Positions 1,635 to 26,399 are shown, counted from the first letter of the stretch. The stretch is DNA of 64,000 nucleotides from an uncultured Armatimonadetes bacterium (GCA_963717145.1 OY970325.1:64001-128000), one strand, 5' to 3'. The notes: generated from the letters alone by a model not told the origin. A program made the numbers and translations.

Positions 1635-3446
1635 TTACGCAACAACAGGCGGCAGCAGGCCAAAAGAAGTAAGTCCCGCATCCTCACGGGATGCTCTCTC
1701 CAGATCGCCCGCGGAAATGAAACGAATCAGCTTGTTTTCCGGAGGAGCAAATCCGGCTTTGGCTTGCGCGGGGTCAAAGATGGCGCAGATCTTCATGGAC
1801 CCATCCAGGGCAAAACCGATGATGCCTGCGCTGCCCGCAAAGGCATACCCGGCCGCTGAGATCTCCGTTTCATCCGGATCAAAGCGGGCGAAGAAATCAT
1901 CGCCCGCCTGATAGACGATCCCATGGCGCGCGGTGCGCCTGAAGCCCACAAACACGACCTGGCCGGGATTCATCTTGATGGCGTCATTGCCAATGGCAAA
2001 TATGTCAGCCCCGGCGGCCCCCCGGTAGTTCTCGCGTATTCCCAAAGCCGTTTTGTAGAACAAGGTGTCTTCCCGGCTCGAAGGCCAGATGAGTTCGGAG
2101 CCGCCTGCCTCATCCGTGAATTCCTGGGCCCCCTTAAAAGCAATGCCTGCCTTGGCCAGGGCGGCTCGCAGGCTGGTCGGGATCTCTCCGAGAAAGCTTT
2201 CCGTGGCAACAAAGGTAAACCCGCCTGTTTTTCGAATGTCCTTCTCCCAGTGGCAACTGAGGCCAAGAAACGCGTGGCCAGGGCGATTGCAGGTGTCGCC
2301 GGTTTTCCCGTTTTCCAGCAAGGTGTGGTCAAGACCACAACGCACGGTCATCTGATTGCGGCAGAAGGCCAGGTGGTGGCTGATGGTGAGCACGAAACCG
2401 GAGAAACGAGGCCCCATGATTTGCTCCTCGCTTAAGCTTAAGAGCGAGTAGTTGTTCTCAACCAGAATGCACTTCGTTCCTGCATTGGCCTCCATGCACA
2501 GCTCCAGGGCATCAAAGGCCGCGGTGTTTCTTCGTTCGGGACTGAGCAGGGCCGCCTGCCTGAGCAATTCACCGGTGATGTCGGCCTTGACCGCAGGTTC
2601 GGGAATCGGGGGGGCCAGGGGCCCGGAAGCTGGAGGGGCGGCTCGGGGCAGACCCGGCTTAACGTCCTGGTCTGCAACCGGGTCTTTCTTGGGCGGAACC
2701 TTGGCCGCATCCTGTCTTCGCACCACCAGTTCGTTGAGTTTGTTCTGCAAGGCAGCTCTGCCCGGTTCGTTCAAGTCATAAAGGTCCTCGCCGATACATA
2801 CAACAATCACCTTGTTCTGGCCGGCTTGCTTCTTGAGCGCTCTGAAACCAGCGGGTTTGCGAATCCAGCCGCTATTCTCCCATGCGTCGAGCGCGTGATC
2901 ATACACCAGGGCGATGGCCTGCTTGTATTCCTTGCTGCCAGGCAGAGAGAATGTCGCCATGAACGAATTCGAAGAGGAGATCACCACCTGGATGCGGCCC
3001 ACGGGCTGGCCAGCCTGGATCGCAGATGGAGCCGGCTCCAGAACGCCTGTTTTTTCGGACGCAGTGACCCCCGCTGCAGGAGGTAACCCCGCCGTCCCGC
3101 CCTTCACCCCATTGCCTGCGGTGGGAGGAGTGGCTGGGCCGGGAGCCCCTGCCTGGCCAGGCGCAAAACGCAGGAGGAATGCTTCCACATCGGAGGCGGC
3201 CACCCTGTGGAGGTTGGGAATCTCAGCAACCGTATTGTAAGTCCGTCGGTCCAGGGCCACCAGCCGCACATCAGTCTGTTGCAGTTTGATCTCCGATCCG
3301 AAGAAGAGCATGGCGTTCAGATCTTCCAACGCCTTGTCCAGGGATTCTTCGCAGTGCCTTGAACCCCGGGTGTAGTGCATTTTGAACCTGCCACCTGCCG
3401 GGACTACTTTAATGGTTTGTTGCGGAGTTGGAGGGGCTGCCTGCAT
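1635..3446 (-). CDS. hypothetical protein (603 aa) with Pro/Ala-rich linkers
   Basis: Long uninterrupted ORF with globular-looking segments separated by linkers; no family recognised. Confidence 0.65.
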   Translation of the reverse strand: MQAAPPTPQQTIKVVPAGGRFKMHYTRGSRHCEESLDKALEDLNAMLFFGSEIKLQQTDVRLVALDRRTYNTVAEIPNLHRVAASDVEAFLLRFAPGQAGAPGPATPPTAGNGVKGGTAGLPPAAGVTASEKTGVLEPAPSAIQAGQPVGRIQVVISSSNSFMATFSLPGSKEYKQAIALVYDHALDAWENSGWIRKPAGFRALKKQAGQNKVIVVCIGEDLYDLNEPGRAALQNKLNELVVRRQDAAKVPPKKDPVADQDVKPGLPRAAPPASGPLAPPIPEPAVKADITGELLRQAALLSPERRNTAAFDALELCMEANAGTKCILVENNYSLLSLSEEQIMGPRFSGFVLTISHHLAFCRNQMTVRCGLDHTLLENGKTGDTCNRPGHAFLGLSCHWEKDIRKTGGFTFVATESFLGEIPTSLRAALAKAGIAFKGAQEFTDEAGGSELIWPSSREDTLFYKTALGIRENYRGAAGADIFAIGNDAIKMNPGQVVFVGFRRTARHGIVYQAGDDFFARFDPDETEISAAGYAFAGSAGIIGFALDGSMKICAIFDPAQAKAGFAPPENKLIRFISAGDLERASREDAGLTSFGLLPPVVA

Positions 3447-3808: not shown

Positions 3809-3855
3809 AGGTTAGACGGAGAAAGGGGATCGCCGCCATGGGGTGTTTACCCCAT
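3809..3855 (-). promoter_or_regulatory. palindromic operator 1 (ATGGGGTGTTTACCCCAT, 3838-3855) with -10 TAACCT
   Basis: 7-4-7 inverted repeat; -10 at 3814-3809, 23 nt downstream on the minus strand. Confidence 0.8.
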
Positions 3856-3856
3856 C

Positions 3857-5339
3857 TCAGGGTCGCAGCACTCGGCAGATCTTGCGGAAGTGGTGGCCGT
3901 AGATGGAGAGAGTGACGGCCAGCGACAACTGGGAGGGGCGGCGGAGGAGCGTCCAGAGGAGCAGGCCCCAGTAGTGGAAACGCTCGCGGCCCAGAACGCC
4001 GAGGCGGAAGTTGGCATGGGCAAACGCCACGAGAGATCGCCAGGTCAGCGAGCGGGAGATCTCTCGGCGGCTCGGTATTCGCGCAGGAAGGTGCGGATCC
4101 GCTGGTAGTACGGCCTGGGCGAATAGATGTATTCCATGAGGCTCTGGTAGCCCTGGCGCAGCGTCTCCCGGTTCATCCGCGGAATAAAGTTGGTGGTCCC
4201 ATCGACATTGTCCCCGGTCGTGTCGGCCGAGCAGGCGGCCCTGGCGGTTCAGCCGTTGGTGAAGCTTGGTGCCGGGCAGGGCTTGCAGCAGGCCGACCAT
4301 CGCCGTGACGATCCCGCTTTTCTGAATGAACTCGATCTGCCGCTGAAAGATCGCGGGCGTGTCGTGGTCGAATCCGACGATGAACCCGCCCTGCACCTCC
4401 AGGCCCGCGCGCTGGATGCGCTTCACGTCGGCGACCAGGTCGCGGCCCCGGTTCTGGCGCTTGTTGCACTCGGCCAGGCTGGCCTCCTCGGGCGTCTCGA
4501 TGCCGACGAACACCTGGTCGAACCCCGCCTCGACCATCAGCCGCATCAGCTCCTCGTCGTCGGCGAGATTGATGGACGCCTCGGTGAAAAACGGGATGCC
4601 GCGCTTCCCTTTCTGCCACTGGATCAGGGCCGGCAGCAGTTCCTCCTTGAGCACCCGCTTGTTGCCGATGAAATTGTCGTCCACGAAGAAGACCGCCCCG
4701 CGCCAGCCGAGCCGGGCGAGGCCGTCCAGCTCGGCGATCACCTGCGCGGTGGTCTTGGTGCGGGGCCGATGTCCGAACATGGAGGTGATGTTGCAGAACT
4801 CGCAGTCGAACGGGCAGCCGCGCGAGAACTGCAGGCTCATGCTCGAATAGCGGCGCAGGTCGGCCAGCTCCCACAGCGGCGCCGGGGTCTGGCGGAGGTC
4901 GGGAAAGTTCGACGACGCATAGACGCGCCGGGCGCCGCCCCGTTCGAGGTCGCGCAGGAACTCCGGCAGCGTCACCTCGGCCTCGTTCAGCACGAAATGG
5001 TCCACTTCGGGAAACTGCTCGTGCTCGATGGTGAACAGCGGCCCGCCCGCCACGATGGTCTTGCCCGCCGCCCGGCAGCGCGCGATGAGCGCGCGGGCCG
5101 AGTCCCGCTGGGCGATCATCGCGCTGATGAACACGAGGTCGGCCCAGGCCAGGTCCTTCTCGCGCAGCTTGCGCACGTTCACGTCCACCAGGCGCTTCGC
5201 CCAAGGCGCGCGGCAGCATCGCGGCCACGGTCAGCAGGCCCAGCGGCGGCAGCGAGGCGCGCTTGTGGATGAACTTCAAGGCGTGCTTGAAACTCCAGAA
5301 GGTGTCCGGGAACTCCGGGTAGAGCAGCAAGGCATTCAT
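3857..5339 (-). CDS. B12-binding radical SAM protein (HpnP-like, DUF4070), frameshifted
   Basis: [11 protein letters not shown]12 domain, [20 protein letters not shown]; frame changes near 5205 and 4225. Confidence 0.9.
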
Positions 5340-6348: not shown

Positions 6349-6395
6349 ACCATAACGCAGCGGACTGGCAGATCGCCATGGGGTGTTCACCCCAT
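6349..6395 (-). promoter_or_regulatory. palindromic operator 2 (ATGGGGTGTTCACCCCAT, 6378-6395) with -10 TATGGT
   Basis: -10 at 6354-6349, gap 23 nt. Confidence 0.8.
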
Positions 6396-6413: not shown

Positions 6414-8035
6414 TCACGCGCAGGAGTTCTGGTCCCCGGATGGTGAGGCGTTGCGCAGGCTGATCGTTTGGTTTCCGACCCGCCCTTGCGTCCAGCCGGT
6501 GGCAGACCGGGCTTCACGGTCCGGCTCCTCAAGTCCGGCATCCAGCATCCGGGCCGGGAGTTCGGGCTTGCGGGTCAAAGTGCGCCGGCGAAAGGGACTG
6601 CAAAGCAGCTTGACGATGTCGGACGTCTTCATGTGGCGGCCGAAGGCGCGCAGGAGCTTCCAGGTTCGGATCGGGCGCCTGAGAACCCGGTGGAGGAAGA
6701 GCCAACCGTAACCTTTGGCCCGCAGCCGATTCACCACCGCGCTGGGCAGGGTGGTGGGGTCGATATCCGAGCACTTGAACCACTTGTGCCAATCCCGTTC
6801 GTCGTCAATGATCCCGCGCGCCACATACTCCTGCCAGAGCGGCGTCCCGCGATAGGCGCACAAGCGATTGAAGCCGAAGGTGTCCAGCTCCAGGCGCGCC
6901 GCGAAGCGGAAGCTTTCCGCGATGTCCTCTTCGGTTTCATCGGGCGAGCCGACGACAAAGAACCCGTGGACCCTGGCGATGCCCTGCCGCTTGGCTTCCC
7001 GGACGGCGTGCTCCACCTGGGCGGGGGTCTGCTTCTTGTTGAGCCGGTCCAGCACTTTTTGCGTGCCCGCCTCCACGCCAAAGGCCAGGAAATTGCAGCC
7101 GGCCTGGCGCAGGAGCGGCAGTTGCTCAATTCCGACCGAATCGACGCGGCCTTCGCAGCCCCAGTGAAACTCCAGTTTGCGTTCGATGATGCCGCGGCAA
7201 ATCGCCTCAATGCGCTGGCGGTTGATGAGGAAATGGTCGTCGGTCAGGTAGATCGAGCGGTAGCCCAGGTCGTTGAGCTCCTGCAACTCGCCCAGGACAT
7301 GCTCCGGCGAACGGCTTCGCAGCCGGCCCTCGCCCAGGGACGGGATATCGCAGTAGATGCAGGAGTAGGGGCAGCCGCGCGAGGTTTGCACGGTGCAGAA
7401 CTTGTCCAGCGAGAGGACCGCCGGAACATCCAGGGGCAGGGACTCGATGTAGTCGATCGGCAGACTGGTTCGGTCGGGATACGGAAACCGGTCCAGGTCC
7501 TGAAGGAGGGGGCGGGGGGCGTTGGTAACGATGGTCCCGTCGCGCCGCCAGACCAGCCCCGCCACGGAGCCGGGGTCATCGAGGTGGTCCAAATAGTCCG
7601 GCAGGAGCTCCTCGCCTTCACCCACCCCCACGCAGTCGATGTCGGGACAGTCCCCCAGAATGCGGTCCGCATTCAAGGTGGCGAAGGCTCCGCCGACGAT
7701 GATCGGGAGTCTTCGGCGCCTCGGCCTTGAGTCCGCCGGGCCATGCTCTTGACCGCCGGGTAGGTGGTGGTCGAGAGAAAGGAGAGCGCGATCACGTCAG
7801 GTTGTTCTTGTGCAACCGCCTGCGCGATGTGCTCCGCCTTCATCTGCGGGTGGCAGGTATCAAACATCCGCACCTGGTGCCCCCGTTGGCGCAGCACCGG
7901 CGCGAGCGTCTGGATCCCCAGGGGCGGAAACGCCATCACCTTGACCCGGCCGTTGTCCGACTTCGACCGATCCAGGCGCTCGGGAAGCACCCGGCAGAAG
8001 TTTTCATCGCCCACGTAAACGAGGAACGTATTCAT
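6414..8035 (-). CDS. B12-binding radical SAM protein, frameshifted
   Basis: FPPLGIQTLA N-terminal domain, RGCPYSCIYC, YLTDDHF; frameshifts near 7680-7730. Confidence 0.88.
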
Positions 8036-8130
8036 GGGCTGGATCTTCGTCTCTGGCCACGGCCGCAAACGGTTGCGCCGCAAACCCCAAGCGCCAGGTT
8101 CTTTAGCTGGTGGCCGCGTTTCATAACGCC

Positions 8131-8177
8131 AGAGTATCGAGGGGACCCCGCGGGGCGCCATGGGGTGTTTACCCCAT
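8131..8177 (-). promoter_or_regulatory. palindromic operator 3 (8160-8177) with -10 TACTCT
   Basis: ATGGGGTGTTTACCCCAT; -10 at 8136-8131, gap 23 nt. Confidence 0.8.
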
Positions 8178-8972
8178 TGCGACTGCCTGGCGCAGGGCCG
8201 GCAGGCGAGGGGGAGGTTTGATCCGGTTTGATTGGGTTTGATTGGGTTTGATCGGGTTGGATGGGAGGAGGCGATGGCTGCAGGAGCGCCCCCGGCCGGT
8301 CAGGGTACCCGGCTCCAAGTCGTGGTTGATCTCGGTTACCAAGGCCGCGATCTCCCGGGCTTTTTCGCCGCCACCGAAGGCCTGGGCGAGAGGCTGCACC
8401 TCCAAAGCGGCCCAGATGGGGGCGGTGGCGCGCCGTTTCTCCTCCTTTGTTTCGCGGTCGCGCTCCTGTGCATCCAAACGATCCTTTTCCCGCTCCCAGC
8501 GCTCCTGCTCGATCTGGAGCCGGGCGGCGTGACCGTCGTTTTGACGCAACTGACTGAGGGCCTGGAGGAATTCGCGGAGGCGTTGCCAGCGCTCACGGGG
8601 GTCTGAGACCTCCTTGAGGAGCGCCTCGGAGGCGCGCGCCAGTTCGACGGCAAGGAGGGTGGCGAAGCGATCACTCAGGGGCCGCTCTTGGGCGCCGGGC
8701 TCCAGGTCCTCGGATTGCTCGGTCAGGCGCTGGACCAGGTCGCAGGATTCCTGGTGCTGGAGCCAGTCGAGGTAGCCGCCCTGTCTCCACTCGGAGAGGT
8801 TCTGCTCGCTGATTGGGCGGCTGCCGAACTGGGACTTGAGGACTTGGTGCACGTCGGGCAGGCCGTTGAGCCAGTCCACGAGTTGTCGGGCCTGTTCACC
8901 GTCATCGAGGCGGTGGTTCAAATCGAGGCGGATGTGTTTTGGGAGCCGGGCGATTTTGCCGTTGCGAGTCAT
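8169..8972 (-). CDS. hypothetical protein with DUF3486/Mu gp27-like N-terminus
   Basis: GKIARLPKHIRLDLNHRLDDG...NLSEWRQGGY; coiled-coil middle. Confidence 0.65.
   Translation of the reverse strand: MTRNGKIARLPKHIRLDLNHRLDDGEQARQLVDWLNGLPDVHQVLKSQFGSRPISEQNLSEWRQGGYLDWLQHQESCDLVQRLTEQSEDLEPGAQERPLSDRFATLLAVELARASEALLKEVSDPRERWQRLREFLQALSQLRQNDGHAARLQIEQERWEREKDRLDAQERDRETKEEKRRATAPIWAALEVQPLAQAFGGGEKAREIAALVTEINHDLEPGTLTGRGRSCSHRLLPSNPIKPNQTQSNRIKPPPRLPALRQAVAMG
8216..8265. repeat. 10-bp tandem repeat (GTTTGATTGG-like, 5 copies)
   Basis: gtttgatccg gtttgattgg gtttgattgg gtttgatcgg gttggatggg, at the 3' end of the 8169-8972 gene. Confidence 0.85.
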
Positions 8973-9868: not shown

Positions 9869-10047
9869 TCACTCGTTTGCCGGTGCGGCCATTCCCCCCT
9901 GATCTGTGCCGCCTCCACGGGCGAGCCGTTGGGGAGGCGAAGAGTCGCGGCGCTCCACCCAGATGATAGCCAGGAGGAACACGAACGAGGAGAGGCTGAT
10001 GACCAGATAGATGATGAAGGCCCAGTAGAGCATGGAAACGTGTTCAT
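9869..10047 (-). CDS. small single-TM membrane protein (probable frameshift after MNTF)
   Basis: Hydrophobic helix MLYWAFIIYLVISLSSFVFLLAIIWVERR; leader homologous to that of the gene starting at 8035. Confidence 0.55.
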
Positions 10048-10142
10048 GGGTTGGGTCTTCGTCTGCGCGCCGCACCGCAACGGCCCGCACCGAAAACCCG
10101 AACCCCTCGTGCCCACGGTGGGTGGACGTGGTTCATGGGAGC

Positions 10143-10188
10143 AGGATACGGGAGACGCCGTGCGGATGCTATGGGGTGTTTACCCCAT
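10143..10188 (-). promoter_or_regulatory. palindromic operator 4 (10171-10188) with -10 TATCCT
   Basis: ATGGGGTGTTTACCCCAT; -10 at 10148-10143, gap 22 nt. Confidence 0.8.
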
Positions 10189-10326: not shown

Positions 10327-11024
10327 CTAAACAATGGTCAACTGGACGCTGCTTTCGACGATGCCCGCCGAGATGGCGTAGCGGGTGAGGCCGGCGGTGT
10401 CGTGGATGTTGAGCTTTTGCATCACACTCTGCCGGTGTTTTTCGACGGTTTTGACGCTGATGCCCAGCTCGGCGGCGACCTGTTTGTTGGGCTGCCCTTC
10501 GGCGATGAGTTGGAGGACCTCCGCTTCGCGCGAACTGAGGCGGGGGGCTCCTTTCTTGACCCTGTTTCCCGTGAGCCGGGGCTGACCCCTCCGGGTGGCG
10601 ACAGGCGCTGGGCAATGGCGGGGCTGAAATAGGTCTTGCCTTTCTGGACTTCGCGGATGGCCTCGACCAGGAAGTGAGCGGAGGTTTGTTTGATCAGGTA
10701 TCCGACCGCGCCCAAGGCCACCACTTGCTCGACGTAAGCGTCATCACTGTGGGCCGAGAGAATGAGCACCTTGGTGTCCGGGACGGCCTGGCGAATCTGC
10801 CGGGTGGCTTCCAAGCCATTGAGCAGGGGCATGGCGATGTCCATCACGATCACGGCCGGGCGAAGTTTCTTGGTCAGTTCCACGGCCTGGCGGCCGGTCT
10901 CGGCTTCGCCGACCACCTGGATATCCCCTTCGGCGTCCAACAAGGTGCGGAGTCCTTCCCGAACGATCATATGGTCTTCGGCCAGCAGGACGGTGATAGG
11001 TTTCGTAGCGGTGACATGTTTCAT
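10327..11024 (-). CDS. NarL/LuxR-family DNA-binding response regulator, frameshifted
   Basis: REC domain (LLAEDH, IVMDIAMP, GYLIK); after a shift near 10540, the HTH reads LSSREAEVLQLIAEG..NKQVAAELGISVKTVEKHRQSVMQKL. Confidence 0.92.
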
Positions 11025-11079
11025 AGAAACTCGGGATTCGTTATCATTCATCAGTCAGTGATCAGTAACAGGTTGGCAG

Positions 11080-12294
11080 TCATCCGGCCCTGCGCGCCGG
11101 GGTGTCGCGGAAAGGAATCCGCGCCTGGATGGTGGTGCCGCGGCCGGGTGCGGATTTGACCTCGAGCGCGCCCCCCACGGAGGCGGCGCGCTCGCGGATG
11201 CTGAACAGACCCAGGCCGCCCGTTCCGTTTCGTTTGGCCGGGTGACGATCCGGATCGAACCCGATCCCGTCGTCCGTGACGGCCAACTGAACAAAGTGGC
11301 CCTGCTGACGCAGGCCCACGGCCAGGTGGCGGGCGCGGGCGTGCTGCTCGACATTCTTCAAGACTTCCTGAAGGATGCGGTAGAGGGCGGTCTCGACGTC
11401 GGCGGGCAGGCGAGGGATTCTGCGCACGCCCCGCAGGTTGAGCTGAACGCGCGCGCGTTTGCCGAACTGGTTGCAGGCCATGCGCAACACGGGGAGCAGA
11501 CCCAGATCATGCAACGCGCTGGGATGCAGATCGCGGGCCAGGCACCGGACTTCCGCGGTGGCCTGGTCGAGGAGGTCGCGGAGCTTGAGCAGCTCGGCCC
11601 GGGAGGTGTGGGCCCGGGCGGGCAGCTTGCCCGCCAGGGTGTCGCAGCGCATCAGGACGGCGTAGGTCAACTGGGAAATGTGTTCGTGCAGCTCGATGGC
11701 CACACGCCGTCGCTCGGATTCCTGCACGTCCACCAGGCGGTGGGAGAGGGCCCGCAGCCGTTCCTCGCTCCGCCGGGCCTCCGTCATGTCGGTTACCACC
11801 ATGGTGATGGTCGCGCCCGGGGCCCCCGACGCGGGCAGCGGACGGATCGAGAGATGCACCGGCAGTTGCGAAGCGTCGCCGGCCTGGAGGAGCGCTTGGA
11901 TTTTGGAGCCGGATCGGGCCGCCTTTTTGAGGAGGGGTCGCAGCGCGGCCTGGTCGGCGGCGGAGAGAAAGCGGTGAAAGGAGCCACTGACCACCTGCTC
12001 GAGCGGGAGTTTGACCATGCGGGCGAAGCACTGGTTGGCGTAAAGAATCACCGCGTCCGCCGTCAGGGTGAGCCCGCCTTCGTTCATGGATTCGATGAGC
12101 ACGCGGTAGGCCTGTCCGGCCCCATCCAGGGTATAGACCTGCGGGCCCTGGCGGCCCGCCACCACCACCGCATCCACTTCGCCGCGGCGGATGGCCTGGA
12201 GGGTGAGCTCGGCGTCGGCCAGGCGGGCCCGAAGTTCGGCGAGCTGGCGGGCCGGGGCAGGGCGCGAGGAGGATTGGCGGCGGGCGGTTTTCAA
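11080..12294 (-). CDS. PAS-domain HisKA_3 sensor histidine kinase with AIRRGEVDA N-terminal motif
   Basis: ERRRVAIELHEHISQ H-box, QEVLKNVEQHA, DDGIGF, GLGL; start overlaps the kaiB stop. Confidence 0.92.
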   Translation of the reverse strand: MKTARRQSSSRPAPARQLAELRARLADAELTLQAIRRGEVDAVVVAGRQGPQVYTLDGAGQAYRVLIESMNEGGLTLTADAVILYANQCFARMVKLPLEQVVSGSFHRFLSAADQAALRPLLKKAARSGSKIQALLQAGDASQLPVHLSIRPLPASGAPGATITMVVTDMTEARRSEERLRALSHRLVDVQESERRRVAIELHEHISQLTYAVLMRCDTLAGKLPARAHTSRAELLKLRDLLDQATAEVRCLARDLHPSALHDLGLLPVLRMACNQFGKRARVQLNLRGVRRIPRLPADVETALYRILQEVLKNVEQHARARHLAVGLRQQGHFVQLAVTDDGIGFDPDRHPAKRNGTGGLGLFSIRERAASVGGALEVKSAPGRGTTIQARIPFRDTPARRAG

Positions 12295-12645
12295 AGGGTG
12301 GTGTTGCCGGTGGTGTCAAGATCCATGCCGACAAACAGGCCGGTGAGGCTGGACAGGTTGCCAATGAAGCGGCGCACCGGCCTGGGGAATTCCTTGACGA
12401 GCGTGGGGGTGGCGAGAATCTGGCCGTCGCGCGCCAGGATCGGCTGCTGGTAGATGTCGATCACCTCCAGTTCGCAGTTGCCGTGGAGTTCGGTTTCACA
12501 CAGTTGCCGGGCGCGCAGGATGGCCTGGCGCGACCGGGCGGTGGCCCCGGCCACGTAGAGTCGCAGGACGTATTTGCCGGCGGGCCGGGTGGCCAGGGCC
12601 TTTTCAAAGGCCTTGGTCGCACGGACGGGTTTTGTTTGTTTTCAC
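12291..12645 (-). CDS. kaiB: KaiB-family protein (second copy), frameshift near the 5' end
   Basis: YVLRLYVAGATARS...LEVIDIYQQP...ILATPTLVKEFPRPVRRFIGNLS. Confidence 0.9.
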
Positions 12646-12660
12646 GGGCGTTCCTTTCGA

Positions 12661-12990
12661 TCAATTGGCGGGGCGCAAATCCAAGCCGACGAGCACGCGG
12701 GCGGTGTCGGACAGGTCGCCAATGATTTTTCGCACGGGCTGGGGCAGCTTGCGCACCAGGGTGGGAATGGCCAGGATTTGGTCGCCCTTGGAAAGGCGGG
12801 GCTGCTCCAACAAATCGATCACCTCGATGCGATAGCGGCCGTGGAGGTGGGTTTCGCAAATCTGCTTCAGGTTGGAAAGCGCCGTCAGCGATTTGGGCGT
12901 CTGCCCGGCCACGTAAAGGCGCAGTTGCCAGAGTTTGGCCGGCCGGGGATGGGAACCGGAGGCGCGTCGTTTCATGGTTTTGGTTTTCAC
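12661..12990 (-). CDS. kaiB: KaiB-family protein
   Basis: [12 protein letters not shown]...IEVIDL...[23 protein letters not shown]. Confidence 0.95.
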
Positions 12991-14753
12991 TTTTTGTTCC
13001 CTGGTTTGGAGCTGCCGCGCGGGCCGCCTGCCCCGCCGGTGGCATCGGCCTGGCGCAGACGGGCCAATTCGGTCCGCTCGGCGTTCAGCACGCGCGTGCG
13101 CGTGCCGGCCTGCTCGTCCAAGCGCCGCAGTTCCACTTCGTCGCCCTCCTGCTCGGAGCGCAGCTCGGCGATTTGCCGTTCGAGCGCGGCGCGTTTGCGC
13201 GCCAGGTCGCGCTGGCGGCGGGCGGCTTCCTGCCGGGCGGCCAGGGCTTCGGCCTTTTCGCGGGCGGTTTGCGCCACCCGGGCCGCGCCGGTGAGGACGC
13301 CGCTGGGACCGATGTAGGCGTCCACCAGGTCAATGCCCCGGTTGGAAATGAGGAATTCGCGGACCTGGTTGGAGTGGGCCATGCCGCGGGCTTTGAGCAC
13401 GTAGAGCACGCGATTGCGTTCGCCGTTGCCTTCGAAGTCCTGCAAGAGCAGCCAGGCGTCCATGAGCGAGGACATGGCGATTTCACTTTGTTGCAGGGCG
13501 TGGCCGCCGTGGGTCAGGCTGGTAAAGAGCGAGGTGATTTGGCCGCCCTTGAGGAAGTCAATCAGCCGCGTGACCATGCCCTTGGTTTCGGTGTCGGTGC
13601 CGGCGACCAGCAGGCTGGTGATGGGGTCCACAATGACGAGGGCGGGCTGAAAGGCGGCGATCTCCTTGAACATGGTGGCCAGGTGCATTTCCAGGCCGTA
13701 GAGGGTGGGCCGGGCGGAGTGAAAGCGCAGCCAGCCGCGCTGGACCAGCGGCCCCAGGCGCAAGCCGATGGAACGCATGTTGCGGATGATCTGGTTGGGC
13801 GATTCCTCGAACGAGAAGAAGAGCACGCGCTCGCCGCGGCGGGCGGCGGCCTGGGCAATACAGGCGCCGACGCTGGTCTTGCCGGTGCCGGCGGTGCCCG
13901 TGAGCAGAATGCTGCTGCCGCGAAAGAAGCCGCGCCCGCTGAGCATGGCGTCGAGCCGCGGGATGCCGGTGGCAATCCGCTCGCTGGACACCTTGTGGTT
14001 GAGCCCCAGCGAGGTGATGGGCAGGACGCTGAGGCCCTGGTCGCCGATGAGGAAGGGAAATTCGTTGGTGCCGTGCAGGGCGCCGCGATATTTCACCACC
14101 CGCAGATGGCGCGTGGCAATCTGGTCATGGACCCGATGATCGAGCAGGATGACGCAGTCGGACACGTATTCCTCCAGCCCGTGGCGGGTGAGCTGCTCGC
14201 GGCCGCGCTCGGCCGTAATGACGGCGGTCACGCCCTTGTCCTTGAGCCAGCGGAAGAGCCGGCGCAGTTCGGCGCGCAGGATGGCTTCGTTAGGCAGGCC
14301 GGCAAACAGCGCTTCCAGGGTGTCCAGCACCACGCGCCGGGCGCCGATGGAATCGATCGCGTGATTGAGGCGGACGAACAACCCTTCCAGGTCATACTCG
14401 CCGGTCTCCTGGATTTCACTGCGCTCGATGTACACGTAATCGAGCACGATTTTTTTGCGCCGGACCAGGCCCGCCAGATCAAAGCCGAGCGATGCGACGT
14501 TGGCCGTCAACTCGGCTTCCGTCTCCTCGAAGGCGATGAACACGCCCGGCTCGCCGAACTGCGCGGCGCCGCGCACGAGGAATTCGGCGGCCAGCAGGGT
14601 TTTGCCGCAGCCCGCGCCGCCGCAGACCAGGGTGGGCCGCCCGCGCGGCAACCCGCCGCCGGTGATTTCGTCGAGACCCTGGATGCCCGTCGGACACTTG
14701 GGCAAACCAGGTGTCGGGGAGGTGGTCGAAGGAATGGTTCTGTTCATCGTCAT
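12987..14753 (-). CDS. kaiC: KaiC-family double-domain ATPase/kinase with C-terminal coiled-coil extension (KaiC2-like)
   Basis: Two P-loops ([16 protein letters not shown]), FEE motifs, MSSLMDAW phosphosite region, KARGMAHS. Confidence 0.95.
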
Positions 14754-14779
14754 TCAAGGTGTGGTTTTAGCGGACTGCA

Positions 14780-16197
14780 TCAGCGGGTCCCCCCCTCGGC
14801 TGGGCTGCCATCGAAAGGAATCTGCGCCCGGATGGTGGTGCCTTGGCCCGGTGCGGATTCGACGCTGAAGTTGCCGCCGACCATCTCCACCCGTTCTCTC
14901 ATGCCGAGCAGCCCCAGGCGCTTGTTCCTCTTGGCGTGCAACACGCGCTGCACCTCGAAGGATTTGCCGTCGTCTGTGATTTCCATGCGAATGGCGTCCG
15001 GGAGTTTCTGGAGGCTCACTTCCACCCGGCTGGCCTGCGCATGCCGGGCGACATTGGTCAGCGCTTCCTGGGCGACGCGATAGAGGACCGTGCGCTTGGC
15101 ACTGTCCAATTCGCTCAATCCGGCCGGAAGTAAAGGTCGTGAAGTGAATGCGGATACCCGTCCGCTTCGTGAAGTCCTTCATGAAGGAATGAAGGCGTGG
15201 CAATCAGTCCCAGGTCGTCCAGGACCGTCGGGCGCAGTTCGCGGGCGAACTGATGCACGATGTCCACCGACTTCTCCACCAGCCGTTGCGTCCGGGCGAT
15301 CGTTTTCTCCGAGCCCTTGGGGTTGACCCGGGCCTCGCTGGGCCAAGGTCGCCAGATGGACATTGATGCCCACCAGGGTCTGGGCGATTTCATCATGCAG
15401 CTCGCGGCTGATGCGCTTTCGTTCTTCCTCCTGCGCCTGCAGAATCTGATGGGACAGATGCCGCAGTTGTTCCTGCATGTGGCGCGACTGCTCCAACAAC
15501 TGGCTTTGGTGTTGCTCGCTTTTCTTGAGGGCTTCCTCCACCGCCTGCCGCCGGACAATTTCCCGCTCGCAACTCCCGGTTCGCAACCGCCAGAGCCTCC
15601 AGGCGGCGTTGCGCCTCCTCCGCCTGCTTGAGGGCGGTGATGTCCGAGACCGCCACCCGGCACCATTTCCGCGGACCGCTGAGGGAGATGGCGGAGGTGG
15701 CGTGGAAGTTCGCCCAGAAGGTGCGTGCCGTCCTCGTTCCGCAGCGGCGCCTCGCAGACCTGTTTTCCGGGCCCGGCGAAGACCTCTTCCAGGAAGGCCA
15801 GAAAGACCGGCTGGCTCGCCGGGGCCACAAAACGCGGCAAGCGCCGGTTGATGAGCCGGGACCGTTCCACGCCGAGCAAGGCGGCTCCCGTCAGGTTCAC
15901 CTCCAGGATCCGGCCCTGTTCATCCAGGGAGAAATAGCCGACCGGGGCGAAATCGTAGAGGTCGGTGTATTTCTCCAGCAGCGCCTCCATCCGGTCCCGG
16001 GCTTCCTGGAGCTCGGCGTTCTGCATCTCCAGTTCGACCTGGTGGACCTGCAATTCGTGGAGCAGCCGCTGGGGGTCGGCTGCCGACTTCGGATCTCCAG
16101 CCTCGGACGCTGATTTCCGCCGGTGCTCCCGCAGCCGGGCTTCGGCGCGGCGGCGCAGTTCGGCGGCATCGGCTGAGGTGTTTGACTTTCTCTTCAT
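14780..16197 (-). CDS. PAS-domain HisKA_3 sensor histidine kinase, multiple frameshifts
   Basis: LHELQVHQVELEMQN, YDFAPVGY PAS, ERKRISRELHDEIAQ, QEALTNVARHA, DDGKSF. Confidence 0.88.
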
Positions 16198-16296
16198 GGC
16201 GCGGTCTTTTCCAGGTGATGGCAGCAATGAGTCATCAGTGATCAGCTGGTCACTCGGTCCGGCCCCAGGACCCGGGAAAGGATCTCCTGCAGTTTG

Positions 16297-17957
16297 TCAC
16301 CTGTCAAAGGGTTTCGCCAGGACGCCCTTGAACCCGTAGCGTTCAGGTTCCAGAACCACGGGATCGTTGGCGTATCCGCTCATGACAATGGCCTTCACGG
16401 CCGGGTCAATCTTGAGCAGCGCCTGGATCGCCTCCTGGCCCCCAACGCCAGCGCGAACCGTCAAATCCAGGAGGACCGCATCAAAGGGACGCCCCTGGTC
16501 CTTCGCGCTTCCGTAAACCTCGACGGCCCTCTGTCCATCCTCCACCAGTTCCACCTCGTGGCCCATCCGCTGGAGCAACGCTCCCAACCAGCTTTCCTCA
16601 CCCCTTCCTCGTCATCCATCACCAGGATCCTTCCCGGCCGCGGAAGGCTCGCTCGGCACCGATGCTTTCTCTTCGCCGAGCAACTTCCGGGAAGCGGGAA
16701 GGTGGATGTGGAAGGTGGTCCCCACCCCCAGCTCTGACTCCACGGCAATCGCTCCTCCATGTTTCTGAATGACCGTATGGCAGATCGTCAGCCCCAGACC
16801 CATGCCCTTTTGATCCCCCCTCTGCTTCGTCGAGAAATAGGGATCAAAGATCTTCGGCAGCACCTCCTTCGCAATGCCGCCGCCCTGGTCGGCAATGCTC
16901 ACCCGAACGTAATCCCCCGGCGGCAGGGAAGGATTTTCATGGGATCCCAGAACCACATTCTCCGCCCGGACGGAGATCACTCCTCCCTCCGGCATCGCTT
17001 CCCGCGCATTCAGGACCAGGTTCCGGATGACCTGTCCGATCTGCCCCGCGTCCACCTCCGCCAGCCAGAGATCCTCCGCCAGGGAGAATTCACACCGCAC
17101 CCGGGAACCGCTCAAGGCCGGCCGGACGGATTCCTGGATCACTCCGGACAGGCAGGTCGGCTTCCGGACCGGCGCGCCTCCTTTGGCAAAGGTGATGAGC
17201 TGCTGGGTCAAGCCTCGGGCCAGTCAAGGCGGTCTGCTTCGCCTCCTCCAGACGATGCGCCAACTCCTCGCCGGGCGGGATGAGCGTCTGGGCCAGTTCG
17301 AGGTTGAGGAGGATCACCGTGAGCAGATTGTTGAAATCATGGGCAATGCCGCCCGCCAGAATCCCCGTGGACTCCAGCTTGTTCAGAATGAGACGATCCT
17401 CCTCGGCCCGCTTGCGCTCGGTGATGTCCGTCAAGCACCGCGCGGCACTCCCGCCCCGACGCCGCCACCGCCGCTTCGATCCGCACCTCGACCGGGGGCT
17501 TGCCTTCCTTGAGGAGCGTCACCTCGCAGAACTCCCTGGCCTTGCTCTCGAAGACCTTCGTGAGGAAGGCGTTGAAAGCGGGCAGGTCGGCCGCGGAAAC
17601 GTAAAGCCCGAAGCGCCGCTTGACCAACCGGGATCGTTCGATCCCCAGCAGGCTGGCGCGGTGAGGTTGGCCTCGCGGATCGTCCCCTCGCGGTCGAGGG
17701 TCAGGTAGCCCACCGGGGCGAAATCATAGAGGTCGCTGTATTTTTCCAGCCCCGCCTCCATCTCGTCCCGGGCTTTCTGGAGTTCCTCGTTTTGCATCTC
17801 CAGCTCGATCTGGTGGACCTGCAATTCGTGGACGAGGCGCTGCGTGTCGGCTTCGGTTCGGGCCTGGCCCGTTTCCGGGTGCTGCTCCCGCAGGCGCTCT
17901 TCGGCGCGGCGGCGCAGTTCGGCGGCATCGGGTGAGAGCGTTCGGTTTCTTTTGCAT
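16297..17957 (-). CDS. hybrid PAS-HisKA-HATPase-REC sensor kinase, multiple frameshifts
   Basis: LAGGIAHDFNNLL, NLVLNAREAMP, PYFSTK..GMGLGL, C-terminal receiver (VMDDE, LLDLT, KPF). Confidence 0.88.
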
Positions 17958-17998
17958 GGCGGGTGCTTTCCAGTGAGTTGCCGGTCATCAGTGATCGA

Positions 17999-20673
17999 CT
18001 ACGGCCCTGGTCCCTTCCTTCGCCTCCGCTTCGCGGCTTGGTCCGCGACCCGCTTCTCCAAACCGGCCTGCTTCGCCCGCAACTTCGCCTCCAGCGTCTT
18101 GGCCGCGGTGATGTCCGCGAAGGTGATCACGACGCCGTCAATCCGGTCGTCCAGCGTGCGGTAGGGCATGATGCGCACGGTAAACCAGCGGCCGTCGCGC
18201 GCGCCAATCGGTTTTTCCGCCGAGGCCAGCGTCCGCAGCACCTCCCGCGCATCGTCGGCCAGTTCCGGGTAGCGCAGCTCCGAGGCCAGGTCGGTGATGG
18301 GCCGGCCCACGTCGGCCGGGATGAGCTTGATGATTTTCGTCGCCTGGGGGGTGAACCGCCGCACGTTGAGATCGTTGTCCAGAAACAGGGTGGCGATATC
18401 CGTGCTGTTGAGCAGGTTCTTCATGTCGTTGCTGGCCCGCGAAAGCTCGTCCACCTTGGCCTGCAACTCGGTGTTGAGCGTCTGGAGCTCCTCGTTCATC
18501 GATTGCATCTCCTCCTTCGAGGTGGTGAGTTCCTCGTTGGTGGACTGCAGTTCTTCATTGGTGGATTGCAGTTCCTCGTTGGCGGACCGGAGTTCCTCCT
18601 GCGAGGTCTGCATCTCTTCGTGGGTGGCCCGCGCCTCGGCGCGGACCTGCAGGAGTTCCTGCTCCAGTTCCGCCAGCCGCGCGCTGCGGGCGTGAGCCTT
18701 GGGCGGCCGGCCCGCCGCTTTGGCGGCCTCGGGCGCGGCCACGTCGGTGAAAACGATCATCACCAACCCCTGCAGCGGCCCGGGTTCCTCGAGTCGCTGG
18801 ACGGTCACATCCACGCACTGCTCGCCGCCGTTGGTCCCGACCTTGAGTCCGTGCAGCGCCACGCTGCCCTTTTGCCGGAGCGCTTTCTGGAAGGCGCCGG
18901 ACAGTTCGTAGCGCAGACCTTCGCGGGCCATGGCGAAGATGTTCCAGTTGGCCTTGCCGGCGGCCGGTTCCAGGTATTTGCCGGTGCGGCCGCTGATGTA
19001 GAAGATGTCGCCCTTGTCATTGACGAGCACGGCCGGCGGGGCGTAACGCTGCAGGACCAACTGATCCGCCAGGGACTGGAGACTGAGCGGCGGTTTCGCC
19101 GCCGGCCGCGCCTCCGGCCCGCCGGGCGGGGCCGCGCTAAAGGACGAGGGAAACTCGACCGGCTCCGGTCGCAGGCCGGACTCCGTCCGCCGAAAGATCC
19201 TGCGATTTGCCGCTGAGCGGGGCAAACAGGTCGGTGAAGCCGCCAATCGTCTCCGCGCTGCCGAGAAACAAAATGCCGCCGGGACTGAGGCTGTAGTGAA
19301 ACAGCGGAATCAGTTTCTTCTGCACCTCCGGGGCCAGATAGATCAGCAGGTTGCGGCAGCTCAGGATGTCCAGCTTGGTAAAGGGCGGATCCATGATGAG
19401 ATTCTGCGGCGCAAAGATCACCATCTCGCGAATCTCTTTGCGCACCCGGTAGCCGCGTTCTTCCTTGGCAAAGAACCGGCTCAGCCGCTCCGGCGACACG
19501 TCGGCGGCGATGTTGTCCGGAAAGACGCCCTGGCGGGCCTTGTCAATCGCGTCCCGGTCCAGGTCGGTGGCGAAGATCTGCAGGGCGAAATTCCCCTTGG
19601 GCTTGGCCTGCTCGACCGCCTCCTTGAACACGATGGCCAGGGAATAGGCCTCCTCCCCGGTGGAGCAGCCGGGCACCCACGCCCGCAGGGCCTGGCCGGG
19701 CGACCGGCTCGCGAGCAGCGCCGGAATGGCCTGCGTCGCGCAACTGCTCCCAGGCGGCGGGATCGCGGAAGAAGTTCGTCACCCCGATCAGCAACTCCTT
19801 GAAGAGCAGATCCAGCTCCTGCGAGTTCTCCTGCAAGTAGCGGACATAGGCGGCCATCTTGTTGATCTGGTGAATGCCCATGCGGCGCTCGATCCGGCGG
19901 TAGAGGGTGTTCCGCTTGTAGAGGGAAAAGTCGTGGCCGGTGTGGGCGCGCAGCAGGATGACCACCTTTTCCAGGGCGCTCTGCGTCTTGTCTTCCAGGG
20001 CCACTTCCGTCCGGGCGATGAGCGGGGTGCGCTGCAGATAGGCGATGATCTTCCCCGGCAGCTCGTCCACCGGGGCCACGATATCCGCCAGCCCGGCGTC
20101 AATCGCGCTGCGCGGCATGCCGTCGAATTTGGCCGTCGCCGGCTCCTGCACCAGCACCACGCCCGCCTTCTCCTTGATGGCGCGCAGGCCCAGCGTGCCG
20201 TCGGAGCCCATGCCGGAAAGAATCACGCCGATGCTGTGCTCCTGCTGGTCCTGCGCCAGGGAGCGGAGGAAGAAATCAATCGGCAGGCGCAGCCCGCGCG
20301 GCGCCGCCGGCTCGAGCAAGTGCAGGACCCCGTGCAGGATGGACATGTCCTTGTTCGGCGGGATCACATAGACGCAGTCCGGCCGCACCCGGGTGCGATC
20401 CTTGACCTGGATGACTTTCATGCCGGTGGCGCGCTGGAGCAGTTCGGGCATGATCCCCTTGTGCGTCGGGTCCAGGTGCTGGACGATGACAAACGCCATG
20501 CCGCTGCCCGCCGGCACGCGCCCCAGGAACTGCTCCAGGGCTTCGAGTCCCCCGGCGGAGGCGCCGATGCCGACGATGGGGAACGAGTACGCCTTTCGGG
20601 GAGGCGGGTGTTGCGCGGCAAGCAGCCTGGGCAGGCTTTTTCGGTCGCCGTTTCGGTGCAGATTTCGTTTCAT
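17999..20673 (-). CDS. CheB/CheR fusion with coiled-coil and PAS domains, frameshifted
   Basis: IVGIGASAGG, VQHL, LSGMGSDG (CheB); GCSTGEEAYS, SCRNLLIY (CheR); NEELQSTNEEL repeats. Confidence 0.93.
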
Positions 20674-20862
20674 GATCCTGTCTCCTCCGGCCGCGAATCT
20701 GGCTCTGTCGCAGCGGCGCGTCCGGCTGGCTCAACTGGACACGGGTCTTCATCGCCGTGAAGCGAGTGTGCTCGATGGAATCGTTGGTCTCAACACGAAA
20801 GAGGGCCGGCTATCGCCTCCCCGGAGGTCTCGGTCGCAAGAGCCAAAGTGCCCATACGCGGG

Positions 20863-20937
20863 AGTTTATGGCTCGGAGCAACGTCCGAGCAATGGGGTGA
20901 ACACCCCATAGCGGCAGGTTTGGTCATGCCCTAAATT
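20863..20937. promoter_or_regulatory. palindromic operator 5 (ATGGGGTGAACACCCCAT, 20892-20909) flanked by divergent -10 boxes
   Basis: Minus-strand TAAACT at 20868-20863 (gap 23); plus-strand TAAATT at 20932-20937 (gap 22). Confidence 0.82.
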
Positions 20938-21571: not shown

Positions 21572-21618
21572 ATGGGGTGTTCAGCCCATAGGCCGATCTC
21601 CGGCCCCAGGTGTAAATG
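21572..21618 (+). promoter_or_regulatory. palindromic operator 6 (ATGGGGTGTTCAGCCCAT, 21572-21589) with -10-like TAAATG
   Basis: One mismatch to the consensus; hexamer at 21613-21618, gap 23. Confidence 0.7.
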
Positions 21619-21653: not shown

Positions 21654-22403
21654 ATGAGAACCTTGCTCTCCTGCCTGGCAGCGATTCCATTCCTGCTCAC
21701 ACCGTGCGCCCACGGCGCGGGTTGGCTCGACCGACTCGGCTTCGGCACCAAGACAACCAACCCACCTTCGGGGATCGCCGCCAGCGCGCTCTCCCAGGAC
21801 CAAATGGTTGGCGGACTCAAAGAAGCCCTGGGCAAGGGGGTCGAGCATGCGGTCGGCTCGCTCGGCAAGCCGGACGGCTTCCTCAAAGACACGAGCGTCA
21901 AGATTCCCCTGCCGGCCACACTGAAGAAGGTGGAAAGCTCCCTGCGGATGCTGGGTCAGAAACAACTGGCCGATGACTTCGTGACGACCCTGAATCGCGC
22001 GGCGGAACAGGCCGTGCCCGAAGCGGCGGGCGTGCTGGGCCAGTCCATCCAGCAGATGAGCCTGACTGACGCCAAAGCGATCCTGACCGGCACGAACAAC
22101 GCCGCCACCCAATACTTCCGGCGGACCAGCGAGACCAATCTCTACGAGCGGTTCCTCCCCATCGTGGCCAAGGCCACCGAACAAACCGGCGTGACCAGCG
22201 CCTACAAAAAGATGGTGGGCCAGGCCAGTTTCGCCGGCTCGCTCCTGGGTCAGGACGCGGGGAACCTCGACGCCTACGTGACGCACAAGACGCTCGACGG
22301 GTTGTTCGTGAAGATCGCCGACGAGGAGAAACGCATTCGGGAGAATCCGGTGGCCCGCACCACCGATTTGCTGCAAAAGGTGTTCGGCGCTGTTCAGAAA
22401 TGA
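21654..22403 (+). CDS. DUF4197 domain exported protein
   Basis: Signal peptide; GLKEAL..G, LNRAAEQA, EEKRIRENPVARTTDLLQKVFG. Confidence 0.9.
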   Translation: MRTLLSCLAAIPFLLTPCAHGAGWLDRLGFGTKTTNPPSGIAASALSQDQMVGGLKEALGKGVEHAVGSLGKPDGFLKDTSVKIPLPATLKKVESSLRMLGQKQLADDFVTTLNRAAEQAVPEAAGVLGQSIQQMSLTDAKAILTGTNNAATQYFRRTSETNLYERFLPIVAKATEQTGVTSAYKKMVGQASFAGSLLGQDAGNLDAYVTHKTLDGLFVKIADEEKRIRENPVARTTDLLQKVFGAVQK

Positions 22404-24924: not shown

Positions 24925-24936
24925 GCCCTCCCAGCC

Positions 24937-26399
24937 ATGAAGACCGCCACCGTCCAGCGCACCCAGGTCATCCTGCATCCCGACCGCTCGCGCGTGCTGC
25001 TCCGGCCGTTTCTGCTCCCGAACGACCCGCGCGCCGCCAGAATCTGCGCCCAGGTCATGGCCCTTCCCGGAAGCCGAGGTCCACACGCTCTGGCAACAGG
25101 TGCAAGACGGAATTCGGCGAGCGCCACGCGAAGACCCGCGAGTTTCTCCAAGCCGACGATTCGAGCAGGTCCGCCCCTGCCTGCGCACCGACGAGAACCT
25201 CTCCGAAGAACGGCAGCTGCTTGCTCGGCGCGTATTTCACCCACGAGTATTCGCTGGAAGCCGCGGCGCTGTTCAATCCCTCGATCGTGCCGCACCCGGA
25301 CCAGTCGGACCTGCCGCCCGGCTCGCTGCGTTTCATCCTGAGCCTGCGGGCCACGGGCGAAGGGCACATCTCCTCGATCACTTTCCGCACCGGGTCTGCT
25401 GGATGCCCGCGGCAACATCACGATCAACGCGCCCACGCGCTACTGCCTCGAACCCGAGCAGGTGCCCAACGCCTCCTACGAGAAGAGCCTGTTCGAGCGC
25501 AAGCTTCAGGAACTTGGGCTGGTCGGGCGACTTCAGCCGGCAGGTGCTCCAGGACCTGGGAAGCTCCTTCACGCTGGACGAACTGCGCGCCAGCCTCAGT
25601 CGCGCGGCGGAACAGTTCCGCGCCCGCGACCAGGCAAACCGGCGCGGTGGCCCGGAAAATCCTGACGCTGGCCCAGTCCAATTACGAAGTGCAGTTCGCG
25701 CCCGACTCGCGCTTGTCCGAGCGCGTGCTCTTTCCGGTCACGCCCTCGCAGAGCAACGGCATCGAGGACGCCCGCTTTGTTCGCTTCCAGCACGACGACG
25801 GCACGCAGACCTATTACGCCACCTACACCGCCTACGACGGCAAGATGATCCTGCCGCAGTTCATCGAGACGCCGGACTTTCTGCATTTCAAGTTCATCAC
25901 GCTGAACGGGCCGGCGGTGCAGAACAAAGGCATGGCGCTCTTCCCGCGCAAGATCAACGGCCACTACGCGATGCTCAGCCGGCAGGACAACGAGAACATC
26001 TACATGATGTTCTCCGACCATCTGCACTTCTGGCACACCACGCAACTGCTCCTGAAGCCGACGTTTCCCTGGGAGTTCATCCAGTTGGGCAACTGCGGTT
26101 CGCCGATCGAGACCGAAGCCGGCTGGCTCGTGCTCAGCCACGGCGTCGGGCCGATGCGCAAGTATTGCATCGGCGCCTTCCTGCTCGACCGGGACGATCC
26201 GACCAAGGTCATCGGCCGCCTGCGCGAGCCGCTGATCAAGCCCAATGAAAATGAGCGCGAGGGTTACGTGCCCAATGTGGTCTACTCCTGCGGCAGCCTC
26301 CTGCACGGCCGGCAGCTCATCATCCCCTACGCCATGTCCGACTACGCCACCACCTTCGCCACGCTGTCGCTCGACGAGGTGCTGGCCGCGATGGAATAG
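24937..26399 (+). CDS. glycoside hydrolase family 130 protein, frameshifted
   Basis: ALFNPSIV, NGIEDARFV, NKGMALFPRKI, GNCGSP, REGYVPNVVYSCG. Confidence 0.9.

Follow-up and report, generated by a model that had tools for sequence, protein, structure and literature searches.

A KaiA-less KaiC/KaiB operon with a shared palindromic operator in an uncultured bacterium: a candidate timer-linked two-component regulon

Introduction

What do KaiA-less KaiBC timers control outside phototrophs? This question is addressed by a locus in a 64,000-nucleotide (nt) stretch deposited under the name of an uncultured Armatimonadetes bacterium (GCA_963717145.1 OY970325.1:64001-128000; hereafter, the window, meaning the whole stretch), in which one kaiC and two kaiB genes lie within an eight-gene run of signalling genes headed by an 18-base-pair (bp) palindrome, here called Operator 5. 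For KaiA-less KaiBC, current knowledge is limited, as far as we are aware, to the protein biochemistry of the Rhodobacter sphaeroides pair and to growth phenotypes observed in a few species. The present locus belongs to a wetland verrucomicrobium that is not phototrophic, so the ATP cue that a phototroph receives from day and night need not be relevant here.

It is probable, though well short of certain, that the locus represents a regulon that is carried on an island, activates itself, and centres on a KaiA-independent KaiC/KaiB timer, and that the many frame breaks in its genes are assembly errors. A literature search on KaiC in Verrucomicrobia, on KaiC with a NarL output or a CheR/CheB link, and on kaiBC neighbourhoods, with supplements outside its scope, found no description of this arrangement.

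Structure of the operon

The stretch has a G+C content of about 64%, so raw lists of open reading frames (ORFs) are crowded. Genes were placed on the strand by third-position G+C content and Pfam matches, and their order was cross-checked against an intact orthologous operon in an Opitutaceae metagenome-assembled genome (MAG), locus L004. By both lines of comparison, the run of eight genes extends from 20673 to 10327, entirely on the minus strand, with intergenic spacings of 14-99 nt or overlaps. At its head lies a fusion of CheB, CheR_N, CheR, a Glu/Gln-rich coiled coil, and PAS_10 (CheBR-PAS, 17999..20673), which is distributed over three frames with breaks near 19735 and 19201. It is followed by a hybrid histidine kinase (about 16297..17957, 6-7 frame breaks) with an N-terminal coiled coil, a PAS-like region, HisKA, HATPase_c, and a receiver, and by a first PAS-HisKA_3-HATPase_c kinase (K3A, 14780..16197, about six frame breaks). 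The central genes encode KaiC (12987..14753, intact frame), which has 588 amino acids (aa) and two KaiC domains; KaiB1 (12661..12990 from a GTG that overlaps the KaiC stop, or from an ATG at 12975; continuous frame); and KaiB2 (12291..12641), a more divergent KaiB paralogue, for which the upstream GTG matching L004 is out of frame and an in-frame GTG lies at 12554. A second PAS-HisKA_3-HATPase_c kinase (K3B, 11080..12294, 404 aa, intact frame) and a NarL/LuxR-type response regulator with REC and GerE helix-turn-helix (HTH) domains (10327..11051, two frames, break near 10601) complete the run. The initial annotation had described a co-oriented, tightly spaced run, and its content, order, strand, and spacing all stand; the broken frames had been overlooked.

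Both PF07730 and PF02518 are matched in K3B, and both are matched in K3A in separate frame pieces. The regulator matches PF00072 (E 8e-28) and PF00196 (E 9e-21) in two reading frames of the assembly, and this NarL-type protein is the sole DNA-binding protein that Pfam detects in the operon. The start of K3B overlaps the stop of KaiB2 (TTGA), and the same overlap is present in L004.

The KaiC and KaiB proteins

KaiC matches PF06745 in two stretches (E 2e-103) and scores 716.6 bits against the NCBIfam model PRK09302, for which the cut-off is 408. Its closest solved relative is the full-length KaiC of R. sphaeroides (KaiC-RS; 8DBA, E 3.8e-195), to which it is about 66% identical. The protein ends in a coiled-coil tail of about 90 residues, and the alignment with 8DBA spans this tail (query residues 500-567 against chain residues 485-554). 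Ser428-Ser429 align with the Ser-Ser pair of 8DBA, which is Glu-Glu in the S413E/S414E phosphomimetic structure 8FWI. S413 and S414 are given as the phosphosites of the R. sphaeroides protein in excerpts of Pitsawong et al. (2023; PMC10076222), where the tail is described as a 12-helix bundle joining two hexamers into a coiled-coil dodecamer, and the KaiBC pair as tracking the ATP-to-ADP ratio in an hourglass-like manner. Two serines mark KaiC2-type proteins, as stated in part of Schmelling et al. (2017; PMC5520375). As judged from its sequence, the KaiC of the window is therefore of the R. sphaeroides type (KaiC2 subgroup), predicted to be KaiA-independent and coiled-coil, and the initial claims of an SS phosphosite, a coiled-coil tail, and a Rhodobacter type are all upheld by the alignments with 8DBA and 8FWI. 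With about 66% identity to KaiC-RS, it would be expected to form a dodecamer, to autophosphorylate independently of KaiA, and to be dephosphorylated with KaiB in an ATP/ADP-dependent manner. The KaiA family PF07688 has zero matches in the 5.37-Mb genome, whereas the Synechococcus elongatus control was matched, and a self-sustained KaiABC oscillation is not expected here.

The two KaiB proteins, both encoded beside kaiC, match PF07689 with E values of 1e-26 (KaiB1) and 5e-21 (KaiB2). KaiB1 is an orthologue of the R. sphaeroides KaiB (KaiB-RS), with chain M of 8FWJ as its best solved match (E 4e-31), and the best solved relatives of KaiB2 are 4KSO and 8FWJ. The KaiB-like N-terminal part of PRK09303, a model labelled "histidine kinase" that we take to be SasA, is matched by KaiB2 (E 1e-6) and by KaiB1 (4e-4), both below the cut-off. 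The translational coupling of KaiB2 to the kinase, together with the PRK09303 match, suggests that KaiB2 and K3B may form a split SasA-like arrangement. A complex prediction for the two proteins returned a score of 0.01 against a mark of 0.32, which, with 46-row alignments and without controls, says nothing for or against binding.

Conservation and distribution of the core

A scan of species genomes yielded 80 related loci, mostly in Verrucomicrobiota MAGs, with KaiC proteins 76-88% identical to that of the window, and the window proteins were mapped onto them. Both KaiB genes are present in 62 of 73 loci, and a PAS-HisKA_3 kinase follows KaiC-KaiB-KaiB in 63 of 66, across several families and phylum labels. 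The remaining genes are less constant: the other HisKA_3 kinase (K3A) lies right upstream of KaiC in 17 of 64 loci, CheBR-PAS is found in 20 of 80 (in 17 of them upstream on the same strand), and the hybrid kinase in only two of 80 (L004 and L059), which have the identical eight-gene order. In L004, all eight genes are intact (906, 573, 526, 585, 124, 117, 411, and 227 aa), and several starts overlap the preceding stop. The conserved core thus consists of KaiC, two KaiBs, and the PAS-HisKA_3 kinase, and it is extended here by CheBR-PAS, two kinases, and the NarL-type regulator. The usual pairing of HisKA_3 kinases with NarL-type regulators, on which the initial annotation had relied, is reflected in the matched domain classes and in the position of a NarL-type regulator, which immediately follows the core kinase in 21 of 62 loci (and immediately precedes KaiC in 7 of 64); phosphotransfer between them is predicted.

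Ten genomes from the family of the window all lack this KaiC, and among 30 others of the class, four carry one at 56-72% identity. The KaiC of the window is closer (76-88%) to those of MAGs that bear the labels of other families, and even of other phyla, than to KaiCs of its own class, and the island that carries it (window 4000-32000) has a G+C content of 64-66% against 60.6% for the genome. The patchy distribution, the raised G+C content, and the affinity of KaiC to other families and phyla together suggest horizontal spread of the module.

The operator and its promoters

Operator 5 is an exact copy of the palindrome ATGGGGTGTTCACCCCAT on the minus strand at 20892..20909 and precedes the start codon of CheBR-PAS by about 220 nt. 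In the window, six ATGGGGTGTTCACCCCAT sites occur at up to three mismatches against 0.01 expected, and the genome holds eight at up to two mismatches, all at genome positions 63340-85572, a 22-kb span that includes the operon. When 400 other genomes of the phylum were sampled evenly, two single one-mismatch matches appeared, no more than with the reversed-pattern control, and neither genome carries this KaiC. The operator was found in 38 of the 80 related loci at up to three mismatches, and the 39 sites at up to two mismatches compare with about 0.05 expected in 1.2 Mb, by a rough calculation rather than a shuffle control. In 22 of 63 testable loci, the first operon gene (KaiC, HisKA_3 kinase, or CheBR-PAS) has the operator at most 700 nt upstream, and roughly a dozen additional sites are located after the NarL gene, at distances of 9-31 nt in L001, L048, and L063. 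The operator noted initially in front of the operon is thus confirmed, and the co-occurrence of operon and operator, set beforehand as a test, was positive: no operator was seen apart from this operon type in the searched genomes, though it is not universal among Kai loci.

A -10-like hexamer, TAAACT (20863..20868, minus strand), lies 23 nt after Operator 5 and faces the operon, and a TAAATT box is placed symmetrically on the plus side of the operator. The 22-23 nt spacing between operator and -10 box is shared by eight island promoters, the operon promoter included. Of the 94 flanks at 47 sites, 24 have a [TG]AnnnT hexamer beginning at an offset of 22 and 17 at an offset of 23, while the other offsets between 0 and 49 occur 0-5 times. 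The palindrome is accordingly located at about -52 to -35, with its centre near -43.5/-44.5, and overlaps the usual -35 position; no -35-like hexamer was seen at 17-nt spacing from the -10 box in the promoter sequences read. Promoters that depend on class II activators typically have the activator site in place of the -35 element. Since the -35-like hexamer is missing and the operator stands in its place, the island promoters look activator-dependent, and the geometry supports, without demonstrating, a self-activation of the operon.

At many sites, the distance from the -10 box to an ATG is 6-10 nt, and the transcripts may therefore be leaderless. The ATG at 20853-20855, 8 nt past the operon's -10-like box, would open a 21-codon leaderless mini-ORF in a leader of about 180 nt. 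An inverted repeat, CTCGGA...TCCGAG, lies between Operator 5 and the -10 box and has a similar form at Operator 6. The leaders after Operators 3 and 4 (8035-8125 and 10047-10136) are paralogous, both opening ...TK(I/T)QPMNTF, so promoter and leader appear to have been duplicated as a unit.

Genes marked by the operator

The other operators of the window lie on the plus strand. Operator 4 (10171..10188), 139 nt after the NarL stop, is predicted to drive a small ORF and an unknown 267-aa gene (8972..8169), and the small ORF resembles a small membrane protein with a frame break. B12-radical-SAM gene 2 (8035..6414), which has one frame break, is preceded by Operator 3 (8160..8177), and Operator 2 (6378..6395) stands before a DesA-like delta-5 fatty-acid desaturase, which begins at 6342 and is truncated by a break near 5766. 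Operator 1 (3838..3855) lies between B12-radical-SAM gene 1 (5188..3857) and an unknown 603-aa gene (3446..1635). Operator 6 (21572..21589), which has one mismatch, fronts a secreted DUF4197 protein (21654..22403, plus strand) and faces a possible small minus-strand ORF. Together with these genes and the operon itself, a small lipoprotein and a secreted 282-aa protein to the left of the window are marked in the island. To the right of Operator 3, a short tandem repeat of GGTTTGAT-like units (8195-8240) was noted in or at the end of the unknown gene at 8169..8972. A family-4 glycosyltransferase-like gene with several frame breaks (22632-25400) and a third B12-binding radical-SAM gene (26400-27740) are present farther along, neither with an operator.

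The nearest NCBIfam models of the B12-radical-SAM enzymes are lipid- or hopanoid-related, below cut-off. Among the relatives, 19 operator-proximal ORFs were classified with Pfam: three encode receiver-only proteins, one a NarL-type receiver, one a LuxR-type HTH, and two HisKA_3 kinase heads, and the rest comprise the DUF2934 type (two ORFs), the CsbD, PRC-barrel, RRM, ice-binding-like, and coiled-coil lipoprotein types (one ORF each), and five ORFs without a family. Of the general-stress or dormancy programme proposed initially, general stress finds a better fit in these relatives (CsbD, DUF2934, PRC-barrel, RRM, receiver-only proteins) than in the island itself, where the outputs are lipid-modifying or secreted and point more directly to a remodelling of envelope and lipids. 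Fixed regulon content was considered and rejected because the output genes differ between genomes: when 14 island proteins were compared with the 80 loci, only L001 (radical-SAM, desaturase) and L052 (glycosyltransferase pieces) were matched.

Frame breaks in the assembly

Only KaiC, KaiB1, and K3B have continuous open frames, and four or five of the eight genes are broken. A DNA alignment with L004 (81% identity) revealed about 17 small indels, nearly all of them single extra bases in the window and none in homopolymers. CheBR-PAS contains two, the hybrid kinase 6-7, K3A six, and the NarL gene one, and a -1/+2 pair lies at the 5' end of KaiB2. Nearby, the desaturase (near 5766), radical-SAM gene 2 (near 7700), and the glycosyltransferase gene (22.6-25 kb) are also broken. 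An alignment with L001 places extra window bases near 10602 and 10547 at the NarL gene, and its desaturase region is about 77% alike; past the NarL gene, identity falls to about 50-57%, too divergent for indel placement, and this part was set aside. No same-genus genome was available among the close relatives sought for checking the breaks, the best DNA matches being 64-75% identical and one of these a paralogue within the same genome. A heuristic that predicts frameshifts from missing start codons was dropped, as known breaks were not flagged.

The genome is a single 5.37-Mb contig, 98% complete. According to a codon-score heuristic, it contains on average 1.35 strong frameshift-like junctions per 20 kb, against 0.59 in 52 short-read control loci, and the 20-kb bin around rpoBC is dense in them. 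The coding sequences of rpoB, rpoC, and two dnaE-like genes, translated with read-through of stops, are each dispersed over several frames (genome 2465857-2474126, 3641807-3644863, and 850621-853636). Because these genes are essential and cannot be pseudogenes, the assembly must contain patchy indel errors, and since they are broken in the same way as the operon genes, the breaks in the operon are most likely assembly errors of the same kind and not signs of gene decay. With indel errors this dense locally, any apparent pseudogene in the genome needs checking against reads, and the L004 operon offers a better experimental template than the error-laden assembly.

Contigs from four public wetland metagenomes (about 130-220 nt long, with a word share of at most 0.28) represent relatives and not the source population, and RNA runs had word shares of 0.07-0.09 with the stretch. 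At 15568 and 19735, the extra base is missing from relatives' contigs, with mixed support at 19735, and the base that the window lacks at 17659 is present in them; at 17430, the extra base is absent from a minority of the contig depth only.

CheBR-PAS without chemoreceptors

The CheBR-PAS protein matches PF01339 (E 2e-58), PF03705 (E 2e-17), and PF01739 (E 4e-47), and no receiver domain was found in its CheB piece with Pfam. The signalling domain of methyl-accepting chemotaxis proteins (PF00015) has zero matches in the genome, with controls matched in eight of 14 genomes, and the CheW domain (PF01584) likewise has zero matches genome-wide, with control genomes matched; CheW and CheA are lacking. 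The absence of kaiA, chemoreceptors, and cheA, observed initially for the window, therefore extends to the whole genome, with positive controls. The question follows which substrate a methylation/demethylation pair would act on without chemoreceptors.

Map reading indicates that, in at least 18 of about 22 loci with a visible next gene, CheBR-PAS is followed by a kinase with a like N-terminal Glu/Gln-rich coiled coil, and the pair is a unit of its own. From the lack of chemoreceptor, CheA, and CheW and the near-constant coiled-coil kinase neighbour, it may be speculated that CheBR-PAS reversibly methylates the coiled coil of its partner kinase, or the coiled-coil tail of KaiC; we consider this a long shot. 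If true, an adaptation or memory layer, so far known only from chemoreceptors, would be added to a Kai-timer-gated two-component switch.

A second CheB/CheR-PAS copy lies at genome 5143335-5148587 (75% DNA identity, one apparent frame break, no operator nearby). It precedes a 729-aa kinase whose N-terminus resembles those of both kinases that follow CheBR-PAS in the operon.

Proposed mechanism and alternative explanations

If KaiC behaves as its R. sphaeroides counterpart does, its phosphorylation state would follow the ATP/ADP ratio. This state would be passed, perhaps via the second KaiB, to one or more of the HisKA_3 kinases, and these would in turn phosphorylate the NarL-type regulator. 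As a dimer, the regulator may then bind the palindrome near -43.5 and recruit RNA polymerase at promoters without a -35 box, turning on its own operon in a positive feedback together with lipid-modifying enzymes and secreted proteins. We infer the three links of this chain, from KaiC to kinase, from kinase to regulator, and from regulator to DNA.

Several observations weigh against such a self-activating, Kai-gated regulon, and they bear on three alternatives. The palindrome may be the operator of a different dimeric regulator, whose gene lies elsewhere or went unrecognised, possibly a repressor that occludes the -35 position, in which case the island would be co-regulated without a NarL loop. 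Activation is preferred over repression on promoter geometry, and a site overlapping the -35 position may also serve repression. At the operon head, 41 of the 63 testable loci have no operator, and L004 and L059, which share the exact architecture, have none within 700 nt of the first gene at up to three mismatches. Nor is a NarL gene in the operon linked to an operator at its head (both in 7 loci, NarL only in 17, operator only in 14, neither in 16): the head operator is as frequent without an operon NarL (14 of 30) as with one (7 of 24). The outputs vary by genome as well, the radical-SAM and desaturase genes being common to L001 only. Yet the sole DNA-binding protein of the operon is of the NarL type, the operator often stands directly after the NarL gene, as at the short distances given above, and the promoters have an activator-dependent look, so a foreign regulator appears unlikely, if still worth keeping in view. 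The self-activation proposed in the initial annotation retains the promoter geometry and the operator at the operon head in its favour, but its candidate binder, the NarL-type regulator, is uncorrelated with a head operator.

It is also conceivable that the Kai cassette merely stands beside the CheBR/multi-kinase/NarL genes under a common promoter, without direct signalling between them, the output of KaiBC lying elsewhere. No operon kinase carries a KaiB-like or SasA-like N-domain or a CikA-like pseudo-receiver domain according to Pfam, and hence none has a known docking domain for KaiC or KaiB, and the pair of CheBR-PAS and coiled-coil kinase also occurs away from Kai genes (genome 5.143-5.149 Mb). 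We find mere adjacency quite doubtful, as a PAS-HisKA_3 kinase follows KaiC-KaiB-KaiB in nearly all testable loci, the start of this kinase overlaps the KaiB2 stop both here and in L004, and the R. sphaeroides kaiBC operon encodes a kinase too, as reported in part of Schmelling et al. (2017; PMC5520375). Real frame breaks would leave KaiC-KaiB-KaiB-kinase as the only functional part, with the accessory kinases, CheBR-PAS, and the regulator decaying. Such decay would accord with the 3.7 kb from KaiC to K3B that have no break inside gene bodies while the neighbours have many, an uneven pattern that is unexplained, with the nine strong junctions of the operon's 20-kb bin, the genome maximum, and with relatives' contigs, some of which match the window at 19735 and 17430. 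Nevertheless, it is very improbable: rpoB, rpoC, and dnaE are broken alike; the breaks consist almost entirely of +1 insertions, and larger deletions are absent; frame-wise translations and tblastn segments, which were not a systematic check, revealed no conspicuous premature stop; the extra bases are absent from relatives' contigs at several sites; and broken genes (CheBR-PAS, 74-88%) show protein identities to L004 no lower than those of intact genes (KaiC, 84%; second kinase, 62%).

Comparison with known systems

The nearest counterpart is R. sphaeroides KaiBC (8DBA, 8DB3, 8FWI, 8FWJ), which likewise has no KaiA, a Ser-Ser pair, a coiled-coil KaiC tail, a KaiB closest to KaiB1, and a kinase in the operon. 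The present locus differs in having two KaiBs, a HisKA_3-class kinase with a NarL partner, CheB/CheR-PAS, two extra kinases, and an operator on eight promoters. In Synechococcus elongatus KaiABC, the phosphorylation state of KaiC is read by the kinases SasA and CikA, which control the OmpR-type regulator RpaA. The proposed logic is alike, with the state of KaiC passed through histidine kinases to a DNA-binding response regulator, but here there is no KaiA and no fused KaiB-like or pseudo-receiver kinase domain, and the regulator is of the NarL/LuxR type instead of the OmpR type.

The Bacillus subtilis DesK-DesR system, in which DesK is a membrane thermosensor, uses a HisKA_3 kinase and a NarL-type regulator to control a delta-5 desaturase. 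Here, too, the two classes occur together, and one of the genes marked by the operator encodes a DesA-like delta-5 desaturase, whereas the kinases are soluble PAS kinases without a membrane thermosensor, the regulon is larger, and a Kai timer is joined to it. Class II activation by LuxR/TraR-type proteins employs a palindromic box centred near -42.5. The 18-bp palindrome, its fixed distance from the -10 box over the -35 position, and the GerE-type HTH encoded beside it resemble that system; the presumed activator here would be a phosphorylation-controlled response regulator and not an autoinducer receptor. The Che3 system of Rhodospirillum centenum, described in part of PMC4436063 as a chemotaxis-like pathway controlling development, also uses CheB/CheR catalytic domains for a non-motility output. 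In contrast to Che3, the present genome has no chemoreceptor, CheW, or CheA, and its CheB is without a receiver and is fused to CheR and PAS.

Biological significance

The operator is specific, with eight sites per 5.4 Mb, all of them local, so regulon prediction and reporter design are straightforward. The locus type represents a compact and testable output path for a Kai timer, consisting of the timer itself, a PAS-HisKA_3 kinase, a NarL-type regulator, and an 18-bp operator on a few promoters.

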